NCBI GenBank assembly: GCA_963783385.1
Contig: CAWANJ010000006.1
Location: 384,001 to 448,000 of the forward strand
Direction: 5' to 3'
DNA length: 64,000 bases
Origin: an uncultured Gemmatimonadales bacterium
Lineage (GTDB): Bacteria > Gemmatimonadota > Gemmatimonadetes > Palauibacterales > Palauibacteraceae
Numbering within the stretch: position 1 is the stretch's first letter; every line of letters begins with the position of its first letter. Shown here in pieces: positions 57,715 to 64,000 of this stretch. The notes under the pieces are model-generated. The model saw only the letters and a list, made by a program, of their open reading frames with translations. It was not told where the DNA came from and did no database searches. The position numbers and the translations under genes are program-made.

Positions 57715-58338
57715 TCAGCGCCTGGCAGGCCCCGCCGGAGGTCGGAGGGCGCGGCGCGTGAAGTCCACGACATGCGCTTCGAGACCGGCCGCCGTCCGTC
57801 CCATGACCCCTCGCGTGCGGCTAGGTCCGAGCGTCCTCCACAGCAGGCCGAACGAGAGGGTCTGAGCGAGCAGGCTGGCCGCCGTGAGCACCGGGTCTCC
57901 GGCCTCGACGCTTCCATAGCTCTTCCCCTCCCGGACCAGCGCCGCGAGGCGCACCAGCAGGGCGTGCAGCACCTCCGCGACGGGCTCGGGCGGCTCGCGC
58001 CCCGCGGCCGCCTCCTGGAAGAGGAGCCCGGGGAGATCGGGCTCCTCTCGCAGGATCCTGAACAGGGCCCGGAGTGCGATCTCGATGCGAGCTGCCGCGT
58101 CCTCGTGTGTCTCCTCCCGAGCGGCGACACCGTCGAGCGCCTCCATCAGCGGCTGGGTGGCTTCGGCCAGGACCGCTTCGTATAGGGCCCGTTTGGATCC
58201 GAAGTGGTAGGTGACGGCGCCGAGGTTCACCCGTGCGGCGCGGGTGATGTCCCGGACCGAGGTGGCGGCGAAGCCCTCGCGGGCGAACAGGGGTCGGGCG
58301 GCCACCAGGAGAGTGCGAGGCGTGTCCCGTGCAGCCAT
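57715..58338 (-). CDS. TetR/AcrR family transcriptional regulator
   Basis: LFAREGFAATSVRDITRAARVNLGAVTYHFGSK HTH. Confidence 0.93.
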   Translation of the reverse strand: MAARDTPRTLLVAARPLFAREGFAATSVRDITRAARVNLGAVTYHFGSKRALYEAVLAEATQPLMEALDGVAAREETHEDAAARIEIALRALFRILREEPDLPGLLFQEAAAGREPPEPVAEVLHALLVRLAALVREGKSYGSVEAGDPVLTAASLLAQTLSFGLLWRTLGPSRTRGVMGRTAAGLEAHVVDFTRRALRPPAGPARR

Positions 58339-58713: not shown

Positions 58714-61700
58714 ATGCACACACTTCGCTGCTTCGGTCGAGTAGGCGTCGAGGGGGCGGGAGGAGAGATCGTTCGCCTCCGCTCGAGCAAGCACCTCGCC
58801 CTCCTCGTGTATCTGGTGGCCAACCCCGATCACGAGCATCCGCGTGAGCGGCTCGCGCCGCTGTTCTGGGAGACGGAGCGCTCCCAGGCGCGGCATTCCC
58901 TGAGCCAGGCCCTCTACGACATCCGGTCGAACCTGCCGGAGCTGGGGGTCCGGGCGTCGGTCAACCACGTGGCCGTCAGGCGGGGCACGGTCGCAAGCGA
59001 GCTGGATCTGTTCGAGAAGGCGGTTCGCTCGAGCGATGTGGCCCGGGCCGTAGAGCTGTACAGGGGCGTGTTCGTCCCTGACCTGGAGTCGGTGGCCACC
59101 GAAGCCTTCGAGCGCTGGGTCGAGGACGAACGCCAGCGCCTCCAGCGTCTGGCCGAGCTGGCCTTCTGTCGGTACGTGACCGAGTGTGATGACCGTGCGC
59201 GCTGGGGCGAGATGTGCACGGTGGCCCTGCGGCTCCTGGACATGAACCCCCTGCACGAGGAGGCGCACCGGGCGTTCATGCGCGGAATGTGGCTTCAGGG
59301 CGACCAGCAGGCCGCCCTCGACCACTTCCGCCAGGTCGAGTCGATGTTGAGCGAGGAGCTCCCGAGCGGAATCTCTCCCGAGACGCACAGGCTCCTCGAG
59401 CGGATCCGCAGCTCACGGCCGGATCTTCGCCGAGCAGAGCCCGGTCGACCCGACCGGCCGCGGATGGTGGGGCGTCGCAAGGAGTTCGCGCGGCTCAAGC
59501 GGGATCTTCGCCGCCTCGAGGGTGGGCATGGCGGAGTGGTGGTGATACGGGGCGAGGCCGGCATCGGAAAGACCCGCCTCCTCGAGGAGATTCGCGAACT
59601 CGCGAGGCTGCACGGAGTGTCCCTCCTCGAGAGTCGCTGTTTCGCAGCCGAAACGGACGTGTCCTATGGTCCCATCGTCAATGGACTCTACCCGATCGCA
59701 CGGGTCCGCGCGGGGCGCTCGGACGGCGGCGCTCCTACGTTCTATCAACTGGGCGTCCTCTTTCCCGAACAGTTTCCCCGCTCCGCCACGCACGGAGAGG
59801 GCGAGCTCGAAGCCGACGCCGGGAGGCGCCGACTATACGAAGAGACGGCGGCCCTGCTCAGAATGGCAGCCGATCAGAAACCTCGCCTGTGGATCGTGGA
59901 GGACCTCCATTGGGTCGACGCGTCCTCCGCCTCGCTCCTGCACTATGTGTCCCGACGGCTGCGGGACCACGCCCTGCTGGTGCTCGTGTCGATCCGCTCC
60001 GGCCAGGACGTCGACGAGGCCACCGATTCCCTGCTGCACGACTGGTGCGGCCAGAGCGAGGCGACCTGCATCGATCTCGAAGGGCTGAGCGATGCGGAGA
60101 TGGCCGAGCTGATCGAGGAGGTCCGTCCCACCGAGTTGAGCGACCCCCAGGTCGACTTCATCCGGCGGCTCGCGAGCGGTAACCCCTTCTTCGCCCTGCA
60201 GATGGCCTCCGCGGCGTCCGACCTCCAGGAATGGTGCCCGGAGGCCATCTCATCCCGGCATCTGCTCACGGAGAGCCTCGAGACTCTCCTGGGAGTCCGA
60301 CTCAAGGGTCTGGGCCTCGAACCGGTCCGCCTGCTCGAGACCGTGGCGGTCCTGGAACGCCACGCCACCCCCTTCGTGGTGGCCCGGACCAGCAGCCTGT
60401 CGACCGGAAGGGTCGCGGAGATTGCCCGTACTCTTTACGCGAGGGGCCTCCTGCATGACGCGGAGGGCCGGCTCGAGTTTCCCCACGATCTCACCCGCGA
60501 GTATGTCTATGGAAACATGGGCGAGCTACAGCGTGCCGCCCTGCACCTGGTAGCCGGGGAAGTCCTGGCGGGCAGTGAAGAGGCTGTCAGCCCGAGCACC
60601 CTGGCCCGCCACTTCGAGCTCGGCGGCGATCGGCCCCGGGCCTACGAGTATGCCCTTCGCGCGGCGGAGCAGTCCGCTCTCGGATATGCCCATGACGAGG
60701 CTATCGCCCTCTCTAGACTGGCGATATCCCAGGCCACGTCGGGTGAGGAGCGTGCAGCCGGTCTGCGGATCCTCGCTGAATCCGAGTCCGCGTCGGGTAG
60801 CCTGACAGCCGCCGAGAGCCACCTGAAGGAGCTGGTCGACCTTGCCGTCCTCCAACCCGAAGAGACCATCGCGATAAAGCTGAAGATCGCCCGGGCGAGA
60901 GTTGAATTGTCGCAGTTCCGGTCGGCCGAGTTGATGCTCAATGAGGTCGAGGGCGCTATTCAGGGGCTCCAGAGCTGTTCCCGAACGGGCCTTGAAGCAG
61001 AGGTGCTGCACTGGCGTCTCAAGTCCGCGATGATGAGAGGTGACATCCGCGAAGCCGACAAAGCGGTGTCCGCACTTGAGACGGCCCTTCCGATCCTTAC
61101 GGGTTCGGGCAGTCACAGAGCGACTGCCGTTGGCCTATACAGCTTGGCCGGTCACGCCCTGTTCACTATGTCGATCGACCGGGCAGCTCAGTACTGCAAT
61201 CAAGCCTTGGATGTATTGGGTGACTGTGATGCGGATCTCCTGCTTCGACTGAAGACCCTGAATGGAGCCATACTCACGCGCAGTATGGAATGGACTTCAG
61301 CGAGCCGAATATTTGCGAGTGCCCTGGCGGAAGCGAAGCGCCTAAACGATGTTCGCCACATTCTTGCGCTTCTCAATAACCTAGCATGTTGCCACTTAGA
61401 GCAAGGTAGCTGGGCCGAGGTCTCAACCCTGCACGCCACTTTCGGCCGATTCGCTGCCGGTCTTTCCGAGACGATATCGTCGCGTGCAGATATCGATCTT
61501 AACTTGGCCAACTCACTGTTCTATCAGGGCCAGGCTCGTGCAGCTGCAGCGACGCTAGAAGGCCTCCTTGCAACGGCACGTCGGATCGGCAAGACATCCG
61601 TGCTTCTTGAGATGGAGGCGCTGAGGGGGCTTGTATACGCTCAACTTGGCCGCCGCTCAAATATGAGAGAGTGCCATGACCTGATAGCGGATCTGTCTCG

Positions 61701-62007
61701 GACGGATCTGGGGACAATTCAGGACAGGTTCAAGGTCTATTGGCTTAAAGCCTTCGTGGCACGTTGCGCGGGAACCGATTCCCCCAGTCTATGGGATGAG
61801 GCTGTGAGCATCGACGAACGCTCAGACAGGGTCGGACACCTGAAATTGCTGTGGCTCCAAACCTTGTTCGCGAGTGACCAGCCGGCCGCAGTCGATCCAA
61901 CAACCGATCCGGCTGGCCGTCGTTTGCTTGACGCTGGCCTGCAATGGTTCGCCTACTTTGCCCGGCGCTGGATGATTCAGGCATCCGGCAACAAGGCACT
62001 CGCCTAA
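58714..62007 (+). CDS. BTAD (SARP-like) / AAA ATPase / TPR transcriptional regulator
   Basis: N-terminal wHTH-BTAD (ALLVYL...SLSQALY...LYRG...FERWV...PLHEEAHR), GEAGIGKT, VEDLHWVD, GNPFF, C-terminal helical repeats. Confidence 0.92.
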   Translation: MHTLRCFGRVGVEGAGGEIVRLRSSKHLALLVYLVANPDHEHPRERLAPLFWETERSQARHSLSQALYDIRSNLPELGVRASVNHVAVRRGTVASELDLFEKAVRSSDVARAVELYRGVFVPDLESVATEAFERWVEDERQRLQRLAELAFCRYVTECDDRARWGEMCTVALRLLDMNPLHEEAHRAFMRGMWLQGDQQAALDHFRQVESMLSEELPSGISPETHRLLERIRSSRPDLRRAEPGRPDRPRMVGRRKEFARLKRDLRRLEGGHGGVVVIRGEAGIGKTRLLEEIRELARLHGVSLLESRCFAAETDVSYGPIVNGLYPIARVRAGRSDGGAPTFYQLGVLFPEQFPRSATHGEGELEADAGRRRLYEETAALLRMAADQKPRLWIVEDLHWVDASSASLLHYVSRRLRDHALLVLVSIRSGQDVDEATDSLLHDWCGQSEATCIDLEGLSDAEMAELIEEVRPTELSDPQVDFIRRLASGNPFFALQMASAASDLQEWCPEAISSRHLLTESLETLLGVRLKGLGLEPVRLLETVAVLERHATPFVVARTSSLSTGRVAEIARTLYARGLLHDAEGRLEFPHDLTREYVYGNMGELQRAALHLVAGEVLAGSEEAVSPSTLARHFELGGDRPRAYEYALRAAEQSALGYAHDEAIALSRLAISQATSGEERAAGLRILAESESASGSLTAAESHLKELVDLAVLQPEETIAIKLKIARARVELSQFRSAELMLNEVEGAIQGLQSCSRTGLEAEVLHWRLKSAMMRGDIREADKAVSALETALPILTGSGSHRATAVGLYSLAGHALFTMSIDRAAQYCNQALDVLGDCDADLLLRLKTLNGAILTRSMEWTSASRIFASALAEAKRLNDVRHILALLNNLACCHLEQGSWAEVSTLHATFGRFAAGLSETISSRADIDLNLANSLFYQGQARAAAATLEGLLATARRIGKTSVLLEMEALRGLVYAQLGRRSNMRECHDLIADLSRTDLGTIQDRFKVYWLKAFVARCAGTDSPSLWDEAVSIDERSDRVGHLKLLWLQTLFASDQPAAVDPTTDPAGRRLLDAGLQWFAYFARRWMIQASGNKALA

Positions 62008-62107: not shown

Positions 62108-63451
62108 CTATGACAGCGCGACGGACCTCTGAGGCGGTTCTTCCTCATCTTTGTTCATGCTTGGCTGTATGGCGTCGCTAGTGCTGTCGATGACTTCACC
62201 GAACAAGCCTGTTGCAAGGAAGGACTTCACAATGTGTGGATCAAACTGGGAACCCGTGCACTTGAGTAGTTCCGCCCGGACCACAGCAACTGGCAGCGCA
62301 TCTCGGTAAGGGCGCGCCGTGAGCATAGCGTCGATCGTGTCCGAAACCATAATGATACGGGCTCCAAGAGGGATCTCCTCTCCGGCGAGGCCCGCAGGAT
62401 ACCCGGTGCCATCGAAGCGCTCGTGGTGGTGCCGGACGCAAGCAAGCACCTTGGGGTCCAGTGCGCGAACGGACTGGATGATTTCAACGCCGCGTTCCGG
62501 GTGAGACCGAATGAGCTGTCGTTGGTCGGGTGTCAGCGGACCCTTCTGACGAAGAATGCGACTGAACTCGTTCCCGATCTTCCCAATGTCATGCAGAAGT
62601 GCCGCGGTTTCAATGATTCGAACATGCTTTGCCCGTAGGCCAAGCTGTTCAGCAACGATCTTGGCACGCTCCGCAACCCTGATTGAGTGGCCCGACGTAT
62701 ATGGGTCTTGGGCTTCAAGTGTCTTGACGAGGACCCGTAGAAGATCCCGGTTCAGTTGCTGCAGCTGAATGTTTACGCCGTAGCTGTATCGCAGTCCGAT
62801 AATCGGAACAACAGCAAGAATAAGCGCTAGGACGCCCCACCTTACGTATAGATAGGCTACCGCATACGCAAATGGGCTTACGACGATATCAAAGAGTACA
62901 GTCTTTCCATAGAGCCGTATCCAAATGTCTGTGAATGGCTCTCCTTCGGAAAGCGACATTATGGAACTGACAGCAACGGAGTTAGTGGCAAAGTAGGTCA
63001 CCGCTGCGGCAACAAAGGCTGGAAAGGCCTGCGAGAATGTCAGGACGGAAAGGCTTGGCTCGCCTCCCAGCGCGATATAGACGAAGCCTGCTACGCCAAT
63101 GGACAGTACCGATTGCGCAACATTAAAGGCGACCTTGCGCGGCTGGTTGCGAAAGATAAAGTGCTGAGTGACTAGGCCTGAAACGACGCTCTCGACGAGG
63201 GCGCCTGCCGGACCCAGGAGAATCAGACAGCCGAGTTCCGGCAGGAACTCGAGAGACGCGACCGAACCCGTAGACGTGACCCTAAAAGAAAGGTGAGAGG
63301 CCAGAACGGAAAGGAGGATGAAGAGTGCTAGGGCCAGCATCCAGGAAGCACCAGCATAAGGCTGGAATACCACCAGTATAACGGCTGACATGAGGAAGGC
63401 CGCTAGAACGGTGGTTCCAATGAAGACGCTAATGCGATTGTCGCCAGACAT
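62108..63451 (-). CDS. Membrane-anchored HD-GYP domain protein (c-di-GMP phosphodiesterase-like)
   Basis: Multi-TM N-terminus, then DPYTSGHS, LLHDIGK, HHERFDGTGYP, IPLGARII..SD, QFDP; start ATG 63451. Confidence 0.93.
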   Translation of the reverse strand: MSGDNRISVFIGTTVLAAFLMSAVILVVFQPYAGASWMLALALFILLSVLASHLSFRVTSTGSVASLEFLPELGCLILLGPAGALVESVVSGLVTQHFIFRNQPRKVAFNVAQSVLSIGVAGFVYIALGGEPSLSVLTFSQAFPAFVAAAVTYFATNSVAVSSIMSLSEGEPFTDIWIRLYGKTVLFDIVVSPFAYAVAYLYVRWGVLALILAVVPIIGLRYSYGVNIQLQQLNRDLLRVLVKTLEAQDPYTSGHSIRVAERAKIVAEQLGLRAKHVRIIETAALLHDIGKIGNEFSRILRQKGPLTPDQRQLIRSHPERGVEIIQSVRALDPKVLACVRHHHERFDGTGYPAGLAGEEIPLGARIIMVSDTIDAMLTARPYRDALPVAVVRAELLKCTGSQFDPHIVKSFLATGLFGEVIDSTSDAIQPSMNKDEEEPPQRSVALS

Positions 63452-63492
63452 AGCCCCGCGCAAGTTGAGAAGGCCTCCCAGCCTTCAAGCGC

Positions 63493-63558
63493 TTACCAGA
63501 GGATCTTACCGGTCCAGAGAATCTTGCCGGTGAATAAAGCCATTGCCCAAGCAAGCAT
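63493..63558 (-). CDS. 21-aa peptide MLAWAMALFTGKILWTGKILW
   Basis: AAAGGAGGT SD 9 nt before the ATG; 18-nt tandem repeat differing only at two synonymous positions; TAA stop 41 nt upstream of the HD-GYP start. Confidence 0.8.
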   Translation of the reverse strand: MLAWAMALFTGKILWTGKILW

Positions 63559-63854
63559 AATAGCTACACCTCCTTTATTGAGAAGTCGTAGCCTTTCGCT
63601 ATCGGCTACGCTTCAGCTTCGCTCGGAGGTTTCGCTCAGCTCGAGCTTTGGCAAGTCACCGTGACTGGGGAGGTTCCCGACAATAATGTGACTCAGCCAA
63701 GAGGGCAATTTGGCCCATCGTTCAGTCGTCTGCGGCAAACTGCACTGCCTCCGGGCCGCATCGAATGAAGAGCAGGATCTTGGAAACAGTCGATCGGTCG
63801 ATACCTCGGATGCTTCAAAGTCGCGACCGTCGACTGGCCTAGCTTTCTGCCACC

Positions 63855-64000
63855 TCACGGCGATGCCCACCGATTCGTTGCCTGGAGGCACGCAAGCACG
63901 GAGGCCTCCTCGGCGGAGTCGGTGATCAGGCTGATTCCAGTCAAGATGATCGTATTACGACGCTCCTGGCCCTGTATGAGAGCCACGAGCAGATCTCGGC
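63855..64000 (-). CDS. Possible 3' end of an unknown gene entering from the right edge
   Basis: Open frame ...RDLLVALIQGQERRNTIILTGISLITDSAEEASVLACLQATNRWASP* with no recognisable motif. Confidence 0.3.
   Translation of the reverse strand, partial: RDLLVALIQGQERRNTIILTGISLITDSAEEASVLACLQATNRWASP

Follow-up and report, generated by a model that had tools for sequence, protein, structure and literature searches.

Directly upstream of a gene for a membrane HD-GYP phosphodiesterase of cyclic di-GMP (c-di-GMP), we identified a small open reading frame (sORF) of 21 codons that belongs to a conserved family in the phylum Gemmatimonadota and lies within a structured RNA leader of ~210 nt. The sORF was found in a 64,000-nt stretch of DNA (hereafter the window) that corresponds to positions 384001-448000 of contig C6 in genome bin G000 (3.5 Mb, 9 contigs). 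Members of the family show coding-type conservation, their leaders contain a long-range closing helix (P1) and a hairpin (P3), the stop codon stands at a fixed distance from P1, and the arrangement of neighbouring genes is syntenic. In the reading that we favour, to which we give an even chance, the sORF would encode the translated peptide of this leader, and the ribosome translating it would open the closing helix and so control HD-GYP expression. Translation of the sORF, the opening of P1 by the ribosome, regulation of the HD-GYP gene and the existence of an input signal are what we infer from the observations below.

The sORF and its tandem repeat

The sORF occupies 63493..63558 on the minus strand, with an ATG start codon at 63558-63556 and a TAA stop codon at 63495-63493, and encodes MLAWAMALFTGKILWTGKILW; this assignment draws on sequence reading, homologous sORFs and coding-type substitutions. 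Read on the minus strand from 63576 to 63493, the region consists of the Shine-Dalgarno (SD) sequence AAAGGAGGT (63568..63576, minus strand), 9 nt, the ATG, 21 codons in all and the TAA, and our reading agrees with the first-pass annotation of this DNA in each of these elements and in an 18-nt repeat. The repeat is a tandem duplication at 63496..63531 (minus strand) that encodes TGKILW twice and was recovered by Tandem Repeats Finder (63496-63531, period 18, 2.0 copies, 88% matches, score 58). Its units, ACC GGC AAG ATT CTC TGG and ACC GGT AAG ATC CTC TGG, differ at two third positions, both synonymous.

Conservation supports the SD assignment. The SD core (AAAGGAGG, A99-G106 of the first sequence) is unvarying in a 12-sequence alignment (A2) and almost unvarying in a 63-sequence alignment (A3). 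The SD had been singled out as the strongest in the window; it is indeed strong but not unique, since AAGGAGGT sites of equal strength occur four times in the 64 kb, compared with 0.83 expected from shuffles.

A family of sORFs upstream of HD-GYP genes

We located the first 12 loci through the HD-GYP orthologues of relatives and then read the DNA upstream. At all 12 of these orthologous loci, from 10 genera, an SD-led hydrophobic ORF of 12-31 codons, mostly with a G-x-[LIV]-x-W ending, lies 5′ of a membrane HD-GYP gene, and a AAAGGAGGTG-type SD precedes it (12/12). The first-pass annotation had let its proposal depend on similar small ORFs at homologous loci, and these are present throughout. 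Examples are MGSLWLVLLLGGTVRW, MNFFMLLFGGTLKW, MLFLIALLTGSLDW and MLLISTNWLARLFGGTVRWGGTVRWGGTVRW; in G001, of the same genus as G000, the peptide is MAWAIALLTGKILWTGKILW. A later set yielded 41 loci matching the pattern (37 complete ORFs, 4 truncated at contig ends), and in the later sets an sORF was found at each leader match with enough sequence. A filtered scan, limited to ORFs with an ATG, a share of hydrophobic or small residues of ≥70% and a G-run past the stop, and thus partly selecting for those traits, returned 69 distinct sORF sequences encoding 62 distinct peptides of 12-31 aa; the same peptides are also found in the unfiltered locus lists. At two loci the start codon is TTG or GTG.

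The peptides fall into three types. In family f1, which includes G000, G-[GT]-x-[LIV]-[KRD]-W comes after a hydrophobic stretch; many of these peptides are 14-16 aa long, and many have Gly-Gly ahead of the last four residues. The type of the sister family f2 is exemplified by MTWMLQLLAAIASLFAGSIAWG and that of other Gemmatimonadales by MFSSLFDFFGSLLSLLGNGVVTW, and members outside f1 have lengths of 22-26 aa. Among 58 distinct peptides from 64 elements, W is the final residue in 34 and lies within the last three residues in 50, while W, F or Y is found among the first four residues in 49. The C-terminal residue of some peptides is V, M, L, I, A, Y, H or T. Overall, the sORFs encode 24% Leu and 10% Trp. 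NCBIfam holds no family for the 21-aa or the 31-aa sORF peptide, and full-text searches of the published literature returned no description of either the sORF family or the leader RNA.

To survey the leader, we used a covariance model (R1) built from alignment A2 (12 sequences, one family). R1 matched in 51 of 114 f1 genomes, representing 18 of 20 genera and mostly with one match per genome (26/63 among good-quality f1 bins), and in 12 of 31 f2 genomes. An even sample of the phylum gave matches in 14/151 genomes (f3, 8/71; f7, 2/2; several families, 0), a figure that is a lower bound because R1 comes from one family. Conservation of the element extends over at least four Gemmatimonadota families. 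It is single-copy and fixed in place: wherever flanking DNA is available, R1 matches precede the same HD-GYP gene.

A motif scan of the genomes of 185,579 species returned 54 places, 44 of which R1 confirms. Four of the other ten are labelled Chthoniobacterales, Chloroflexia, Terrabacter and Cohnella and are probably chance matches; the remaining six are from Gemmatimonadota, four of them yielding sORFs and five carrying the gene for a 244-aa protein that also precedes the leader in G000. The leader is specific to Gemmatimonadota. Three R1-confirmed leaders are in records labelled Akkermansiaceae, Phycisphaerales (a complete chromosome) and ‘uncultured bacterium’ (L135, L124 and L127), which are either mislabelled or misbinned Gemmatimonadota or occurrences beyond the phylum. 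Two bins, G003 (C116, C83) and G081 (C51, C287), each hold two differing leader/sORF variants on separate contigs, representing either mixed strains or true paralogues; in G003 the duplicated motif is on one contig and a single-motif variant, MLGLMIALFTGRLSW, on another.

Coding-type evolution and motif duplication

Substitutions among the sORFs follow a coding pattern. Pairwise differences at codon positions 1:2:3 number 377:222:536, with the second position the most conserved, and differing codons comprise 381 synonymous and 428 non-synonymous cases (sORFs of equal length at ≤35% divergence; the pairs are not independent). Hydrophobic character is kept along the entire peptide and is not confined to its C-terminal part. 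G000 and G003 encode an identical peptide with differing codons (five base differences, counted by eye in the alignment). The TGKILW duplication is common to three species of genus g1 (G000, G003 and G001), in all of which the differences between copies are solely synonymous. Taken with the conserved SD, start and stop, these patterns bear out the protein-level selection that had been proposed from the repeat, and the sORF looks translated, with its peptide under selection.

Other in-frame repeats of the motif are GGTVRW three times in G008, FGGTVRW..FFGGTVRW in G092, GLIRI twice in G112, TGTIGW..GTIGW in G009 and FAGNI twice in G038. In-frame duplication is thus seen in six groups, from different genera, and in every case it is the motif adjoining the stop that is repeated. 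Judged by their differing units, and not from a tree, the six duplications would be independent.

Arg is encoded by AGG in 59% of the 32 cases in the sORFs of 55 loci, compared with 12% in the adjacent HD-GYP genes. Where AGG precedes the final UGG, an SD-like AGGUGG arises immediately 5′ of the stop, and the difference in AGG share hints at an added RNA-level constraint in this region. We also considered that rare, AT-rich codons might be used throughout the sORF and rejected this, as GC content at third codon positions is 0.60 versus 0.63 in the adjacent gene and only Arg AGG deviates.

A structured RNA leader with a long-range closing helix

RNAalifold analysis of 12 full elements predicted a long-range helix (P1), pairing of the SD with an upstream CCUCC, and a hairpin (P3). 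P1 joins the C-rich 5′ end of the leader to a G-rich stretch past the sORF stop. In the window, its 5′ arm (CCUCCCCAGUC, 63663..63673, minus strand) pairs with its 3′ arm (GGCUGGGAGG, 63474..63483, minus strand), a pairing derived by hand for G000; the 3′ arm begins 9 nt past the stop of the sORF, and 10 nt separate its end from the first possible start of the HD-GYP gene, the TTG at 63463. P3 lies at 63582..63614 (minus strand) and has a conserved loop, (G)AUAGCG(A).

Covariation was tested on alignment A3, a MAFFT alignment of 63 leaders that was not fitted to structure. Paired cells made up 86.9% of the total compared with 77.6% after shuffling, and changes on both sides of a pair were observed for 8 of 11 pairs in P1 and 6 of 7 in P3, where 94.3% of cells are paired. 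The covariation score of 0.339 (0.174 shuffled) was reached by none of 500 shuffles, and sliding the partners by 1-3 columns gave scores of 0.045-0.100.

The position of P1 relative to the sORF is closely held. The G-run of its 3′ arm begins 5-15 nt past the stop in 54 of 55 loci, so that P1 begins within one ribosome footprint of the stop codon, and in f2 the 3′ arm overlaps the stop codon itself. A run of 4-7 U follows the G-run in 10/10 f2-type loci, compared with at most 2 U in 43/45 other loci.

Two further elements lie between the arms of P1. The CCUCC at 63625..63629 (minus strand) is a candidate anti-SD for the GGAGG of the sORF SD; RNAalifold pairs the two in 11-12 of 12 sequences, and they are also paired in the single-sequence minimum free energy fold. 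Between P1 and P3, and identified by sequence reading, is an array of NAGC(G) pentamers (63597..63648, minus strand; GAGCU, GAGCG, GAGCG, AAGCU, AAGCG, UAGCC, UAGCG). An array of 5-7 pentamers of the form (G/A/U)AGC(G), mostly single-stranded in the models, is present in all leaders, and its GAGCG blocks are unvarying in A2. AGC occurs 7.1 times per 128-nt leader compared with 2.8 in shuffled sequences, most commonly at a spacing of 5 nt. The array is reminiscent of the repeated triplets at which ring-shaped RNA-binding proteins bind.

We compared the leader with known RNA families and signals. Rfam 15 contains no relevant match to window positions 62900-64000 at E values up to 10, and at the gathering score the leaders of 10 representative loci gave no match, the only match being a tRNA elsewhere. 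A 16-bit Rfam match to Zeta-pan on the opposite strand (63278-63320) was rejected as chance. A promoter/terminator scan, which proved uninformative, returned one promoter-like site (63584-63557) overlapping the SD and start codon and zero terminators. CsrA-type GGA sites in the repeat array were considered and dropped, as two of the boxes read GAA or GAG, and not GGA, in the genus to which the window belongs. A CUUGCC/GGCAAG pairing of the 5′ region with the sORF repeat in G000 is not conserved in G001 and was rejected as chance.

The HD-GYP gene and its conserved neighbours

On the minus strand, the genes are arranged in the order 565-aa GGDEF cyclase, 244-aa ORF, a spacer of ~300 nt, the sORF, 29-41 nt and the 451-aa membrane HD-GYP protein. 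The last is a c-di-GMP phosphodiesterase encoded at 62108..63463 (minus strand) from the TTG at 63463, with an in-frame ATG at 63451 (Pfam HD_5, E = 3.3e-31). Its N-terminal membrane domain is MASE9-like, at 18.1 bits, below the Pfam cut-off of 24.3. A long ORF follows the sORF in 55 of 64 elements, and in the other nine there is none within the DNA examined; HD-GYP motifs are common to all 23 downstream ORFs that were aligned. In every case the leader and the HD-GYP gene share one strand, and the gene starts 25-45 nt downstream.

The first-pass annotation had directed attention past position 64000, to proteases, transporters or modifying enzymes that might process the peptide. The conserved genes there are instead those of the GGDEF cyclase and the 244-aa protein, with the HD-GYP gene downstream, and no peptide-modifying enzyme, C39 or other peptidase or dedicated exporter was found among the conserved neighbours. 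An ABC-2 permease gene lies further upstream, as read in G000 alone. Homologues of the 244-aa protein are encoded 5′ of the leader in 105 fetched loci and GGDEF homologues in 81, in a set that includes duplicates of the same places. The GGDEF diguanylate cyclase gene is 5′ of the 244-aa gene and past the window end (L002 4579-6276, minus strand), and the N-terminal domain of its product resembles the iron-only hydrogenase large subunit (Fe_hyd_lg_C, E = 6.6e-8). As the GGDEF and HD-GYP genes are conserved together, the cluster pairs a maker of c-di-GMP with a breaker.

The 3′ end of the 244-aa gene is in the window at 63855..64000 (minus strand), and the gene continues to G000:C6 448589 (L002 3855-4589), where it overlaps the end of the cyclase gene; it was recognized as an ORF, by its homologues and by its predicted fold. 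The protein has no Pfam family, its nearest Atlas clusters are Gemmatimonadota hypothetical proteins, and it is specific to this phylum. Its structural model (mean pLDDT, the predicted local distance difference test, 85) has two domains. The N-terminal domain is predicted to be ferredoxin-like and resembles the cytoplasmic domains of cation diffusion facilitator metal transporters (VIA Z 9.6, root-mean-square deviation (rmsd) 2.0, 68 aligned). The modelled C-terminal domain resembles the Leu/Ile-binding regulatory domain of LeuA/citramalate synthase (Foldseek E = 6.8e-6; for the LeuA-type regulatory domain, VIA Z 9.9, rmsd 3.1, 109 aligned). As a speculation, the 244-aa protein could read the NAGC repeat array. 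Similarity of the model to RNA-binding proteins was too weak to retain (Foldseek TM-scores of 0.14-0.17 for double-stranded RNA-binding domains, and a partial uS5-like VIA match with Z about 7).

Other observations concern the surroundings of the cluster and one of its relatives. A 1097-aa regulator (winged helix, BTAD, AAA, TPR) is encoded at 58714-62007 on the plus strand, in convergent orientation with the HD-GYP gene; the gene beside it, at 57715-58338 on the minus strand, encodes a TetR-family regulator. In G026:C32 (L075/L116), ~80 nt comprising the sORF end, the P1 3′ arm and the HD-GYP start are missing in comparison with its close relative G035, through either a natural deletion or an assembly artefact. 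With these ~80 nt missing, a GTG frame overlapping the SD runs into the HD-GYP protein.

Strain variation and assembly breaks

Many contigs end at the element, and phase variation was therefore suspected. Examples of contigs that end in or beside the leader and sORF are G012:C29, G017:C10, G111:C171, G109:C200, G079:C151, G011:C37 and G050:C349. In each of four public metagenome DNA runs, the contigs spanning the sORF have two repeat copies and zero indels, and we rejected repeat number as a phase-variation-like trait, although rare variants could escape contigs. The source organism occurs in salt-marsh and sediment samples; no RNA run was listed for the locus, which is neutral as to its expression. 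The summed depth over the leader core (63584-63637) is raised in three of the four runs (X4, X5 and X6) and flat in X1, and loose ends at the core lead into differing leader variants. Because of this raised depth and these loose ends, and with repeat number constant, the contig breaks are better explained by a near-identical leader core common to co-occurring relatives, which is their likely cause.

In contigs from other metagenomes, unrelated sequence of different length replaces the spacer that separates the 244-aa gene from the leader (63670-63848), with no change in the leader or the sORF. In one example, 179 positions are skipped and 127 letters lie between. The spacer is a strain-variable region and possibly contains the promoter.

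A proposed leader-peptide mechanism

A covarying helix near the stop codon, a very strong and possibly masked SD and strict linkage to one gene together form the anatomy of leader-peptide control, and on this basis we propose the following mechanism. When the sORF is not being translated, the leader's C-rich 5′ end would pair with the G-rich stretch past the stop, forming P1 and closing the whole leader. In f2, where 4-7 U follow at once, P1 would be intrinsic-terminator-like. In f1, including the window, the G-run lies mostly 7-25 nt 5′ of the HD-GYP start and may belong to its ribosome-binding region. A ribosome reaching the last codons of the sORF would cover the 3′ arm of P1 and block the helix, allowing read-through or HD-GYP initiation. 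How often this happens could be set at two points. The first would be the very strong SD of the sORF, maskable by the upstream CCUCC and situated beside the putative protein-binding NAGC(G) array. The second, probably, would be the dwell of the ribosome on the C-terminal G-x-[LIV]-x-W beside the stop, for which an in-frame motif duplication, such as the doubled TGKILW of the window, would supply a second dwell site.

Several observations weigh against this mechanism. The conserved hydrophobicity of the whole peptide and the members of 22-26 aa fit a functional peptide product equally well or better. An HD-GYP homologue in G030 is present without any leader. The shuffle statistics overstate the support for the helices, because the sequences are related and not independent and all genomes are metagenome bins. 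The CCUCC:GGAGG pairing shows zero covariation, both sides being unvarying, which places it beyond the reach of a covariation test, and it is missing from f2. The G-run stands a variable 7 to 32 nt and more from where the HD-GYP gene starts, which makes it doubtful as the HD-GYP SD at many loci. An alternative structure of the antiterminator kind was not found in the leader. Classical attenuators have regulatory codons that match the pathway of the regulated gene; here that gene encodes an HD-GYP phosphodiesterase, and the sORF has no run of a single codon. The leaderless homologue (complete f2 genome, C1:616500-619700, L085) has 39% identity, and its start overlaps the preceding gene, which we read as a protein kinase gene from its translation alone.

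The proposed system can be compared with known leader peptides. In leader-peptide attenuators such as trpL, ilvL and pheL, the pyrBI leader and rtpLP before the anti-TRAP gene, the position of the ribosome on a short leader ORF decides the formation of a downstream terminator or of a helix that occludes the ribosome-binding site (RBS). The present leader likewise has a short SD-led ORF with its stop beside a putative regulatory helix. It differs from trpL-type leaders in that the helix closes the whole leader over a long range, from the 5′ end to past the stop, and is not a local 3:4 hairpin; in that it lacks a run of codons for a pathway amino acid and precedes a c-di-GMP phosphodiesterase gene; and in that hydrophobicity is maintained over the full length of the peptide, whose C-terminal G-x-[LIV]-x-W has been repeatedly duplicated. 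Regulatory nascent peptides of the TnaC type hold the ribosome at or near the stop. As in TnaC, conserved aromatic residues lie ~12 positions apart, the C-terminus by the stop is conserved, and occupancy of the stop would block an RNA element; unlike TnaC, with which there is no sequence similarity, some members are without a C-terminal Trp, and stalling is here a proposal.

Two published cases also bear comparison. The trp-attenuator leader peptide peTrpL of Sinorhizobium meliloti is described as acting in trans on a multidrug efflux operon (PMC7298713). The sORF product resembles it, so described, as a very small peptide from an attenuator-type leader that may act free, and differs in that peTrpL comes from the trp attenuator and has the efflux operon as its target. 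In Corynebacterium, ilvB-II is reported to be a conserved upstream ORF that was first taken for an RNA motif and that regulates its operon (PMC10272879). There too a conserved upstream region reflects a short ORF, which in that case is translated; ilvB-II is described as limited to one genus, has branched-chain amino-acid codons tied to the pathway and is not known to have a long-range closing helix.

Alternative explanations

The sORF product might act in trans as a hydrophobic micropeptide of 14-31 aa, most plausibly as an intramembrane partner or ligand of the MASE9-like domain of the HD-GYP protein, with the RNA serving only co-expression and coupling; we consider this less likely than not, though still a serious candidate. 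Hydrophobicity along the full peptide and the conservation of the second codon position would be expected of such a product, W (10% of residues) lies near both ends as interfacial anchors do, members outside f1 reach 22-26 aa, and the element is strictly tied to a single membrane-sensor gene. In the description of MASE9, its ligand is proposed to bind within the membrane (HD-GYP/MASE9 preprint), but the match of the HD-GYP protein to MASE9 falls under the Pfam cut-off. Many f1 peptides, at 14-16 aa and with ~8 hydrophobic residues before the Gly, are too short for a bilayer, and because of this length a cis role is favoured. Nor would a merely co-expressed gene need a stop codon at a fixed distance from a covarying P1, and the C-terminal motif tolerates duplication and triplication. 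Complex prediction for the 31-aa peptide of G008 and the HD-GYP region 1-240 from the same genome, both entered as alignments, gave a score of 0.01 and a mark of 0.32 and was counted neither way. The cis role of a leader peptide and the trans role of a micropeptide are not mutually exclusive.

Small membrane proteins of the MgrB-PhoQ type, ~30-65 aa long and membrane-spanning, modulate sensors. The sORF is similar to them as a gene for a tiny hydrophobic peptide beside a membrane signalling protein on which the peptide possibly acts; it differs in that many members are 14-16 aa.

A stronger form of cis control would be an RNA-peptide switch of an undescribed kind, which we think unlikely, in which the nascent G-x-[LIV]-x-W peptide of 14-31 aa itself holds the ribosome and keeps the terminator or RBS helix open. 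The trigger of such a switch may be a small molecule, or the LeuA-regulatory-like neighbour bound to the NAGC array, and the recurrent motif duplications in six groups may represent evolutionary tuning of the pause.

The sORF could alternatively be a classical amino-acid attenuator, in which stalling at Trp, Leu or other hydrophobic codons decides P1 formation and links c-di-GMP breakdown to amino-acid supply, perhaps with the involvement of the LeuA-regulatory-like protein encoded upstream. A Trp-sensing leader peptide of this kind had been suggested for the window. The anatomy is indeed that of a leader peptide in a structured leader, but the downstream gene is unconnected with tryptophan, W-final peptides account for just 34 of 58, and no test here indicates tryptophan sensing. 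W is last or nearly last in 50/58 peptides, where a stalled ribosome would cover the P1 3′ arm, but the C-terminal W is missing in 8/58. The sORFs are rich in Leu (24%) and Trp (10%), but richness in Leu is expected of any hydrophobic peptide, and there is no run of identical regulatory codons. The 244-aa protein has a modelled domain like the Leu/Ile-binding one of LeuA/citramalate synthase, but fold similarity is uninformative on the ligand, and the regulated gene is not an amino-acid gene. We regard a classical attenuator as improbable.

In type I toxin mRNAs such as those of hok and AapA1, a long-distance 5′-3′ interaction is combined with a masked SD. The sORF could similarly encode a hydrophobic toxin kept untranslated by 5′-3′ pairing and SD masking until RNA processing or antisense loss. 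Like these mRNAs, it has a hydrophobic ORF of small size, a very strong SD facing a candidate anti-SD and a covarying helix linking the 5′ end to the region just past the ORF, and in f2 the U-run after the helix would yield a discrete transcript of ~210 nt. Unlike hok and AapA1, the element is single-copy, vertically inherited and syntenic in the same cluster across at least four families of the phylum, neither patchy nor multi-copy, and is always directly 5′ of the HD-GYP gene on the same strand with the gene start 25-45 nt downstream. Members of 14 aa are shorter than any toxin of this class known to us, and the promoter/terminator scan, the only antisense search made, gave no convincing antisense signal. 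A toxin role is therefore highly improbable in our estimation.

The precursor of a pheromone or of a peptide synthesized on ribosomes and modified after translation (RiPP) with two identical Trp-terminated cores, which the first-pass annotation had preferred, can all but be set aside: some members contain two or three copies of the motif, both copies are under peptide-level selection and in many f1 peptides Gly-Gly precedes the last four residues, but most members have a single motif, are only 14-16 aa long and have no recognisable leader/core split, the motif varies freely (GGTVRW, AGKLDW, TGSLDW, GDIAWG, NGVVTW), the conserved neighbours include no modifying enzyme, C39 peptidase or dedicated exporter, and the ORF sits inside a cis-acting RNA structure.

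Significance

The sORF and its leader represent a gap in annotation: neither has a family, in NCBIfam or in Rfam respectively, although both are conserved in a poorly studied phylum. In terms of method, peptide-level conservation of an ORF of 14-21 codons can be verified from genomes when it is anchored on flanking RNA structure. The leader, the sORF and the 244-aa candidate regulator form a compact and testable system. If leader-peptide control by the sORF is correct, it would constitute a new class of leader peptide and a new structured RNA motif and, to our knowledge, the first example of a c-di-GMP phosphodiesterase controlled through a translated upstream mini-ORF. The element also bears on the open question of what membrane MASE-type sensor domains sense. 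If the RNA-peptide switch is the true form of this control, c-di-GMP degradation in these bacteria would be coupled directly to a metabolite or to the status of translation.

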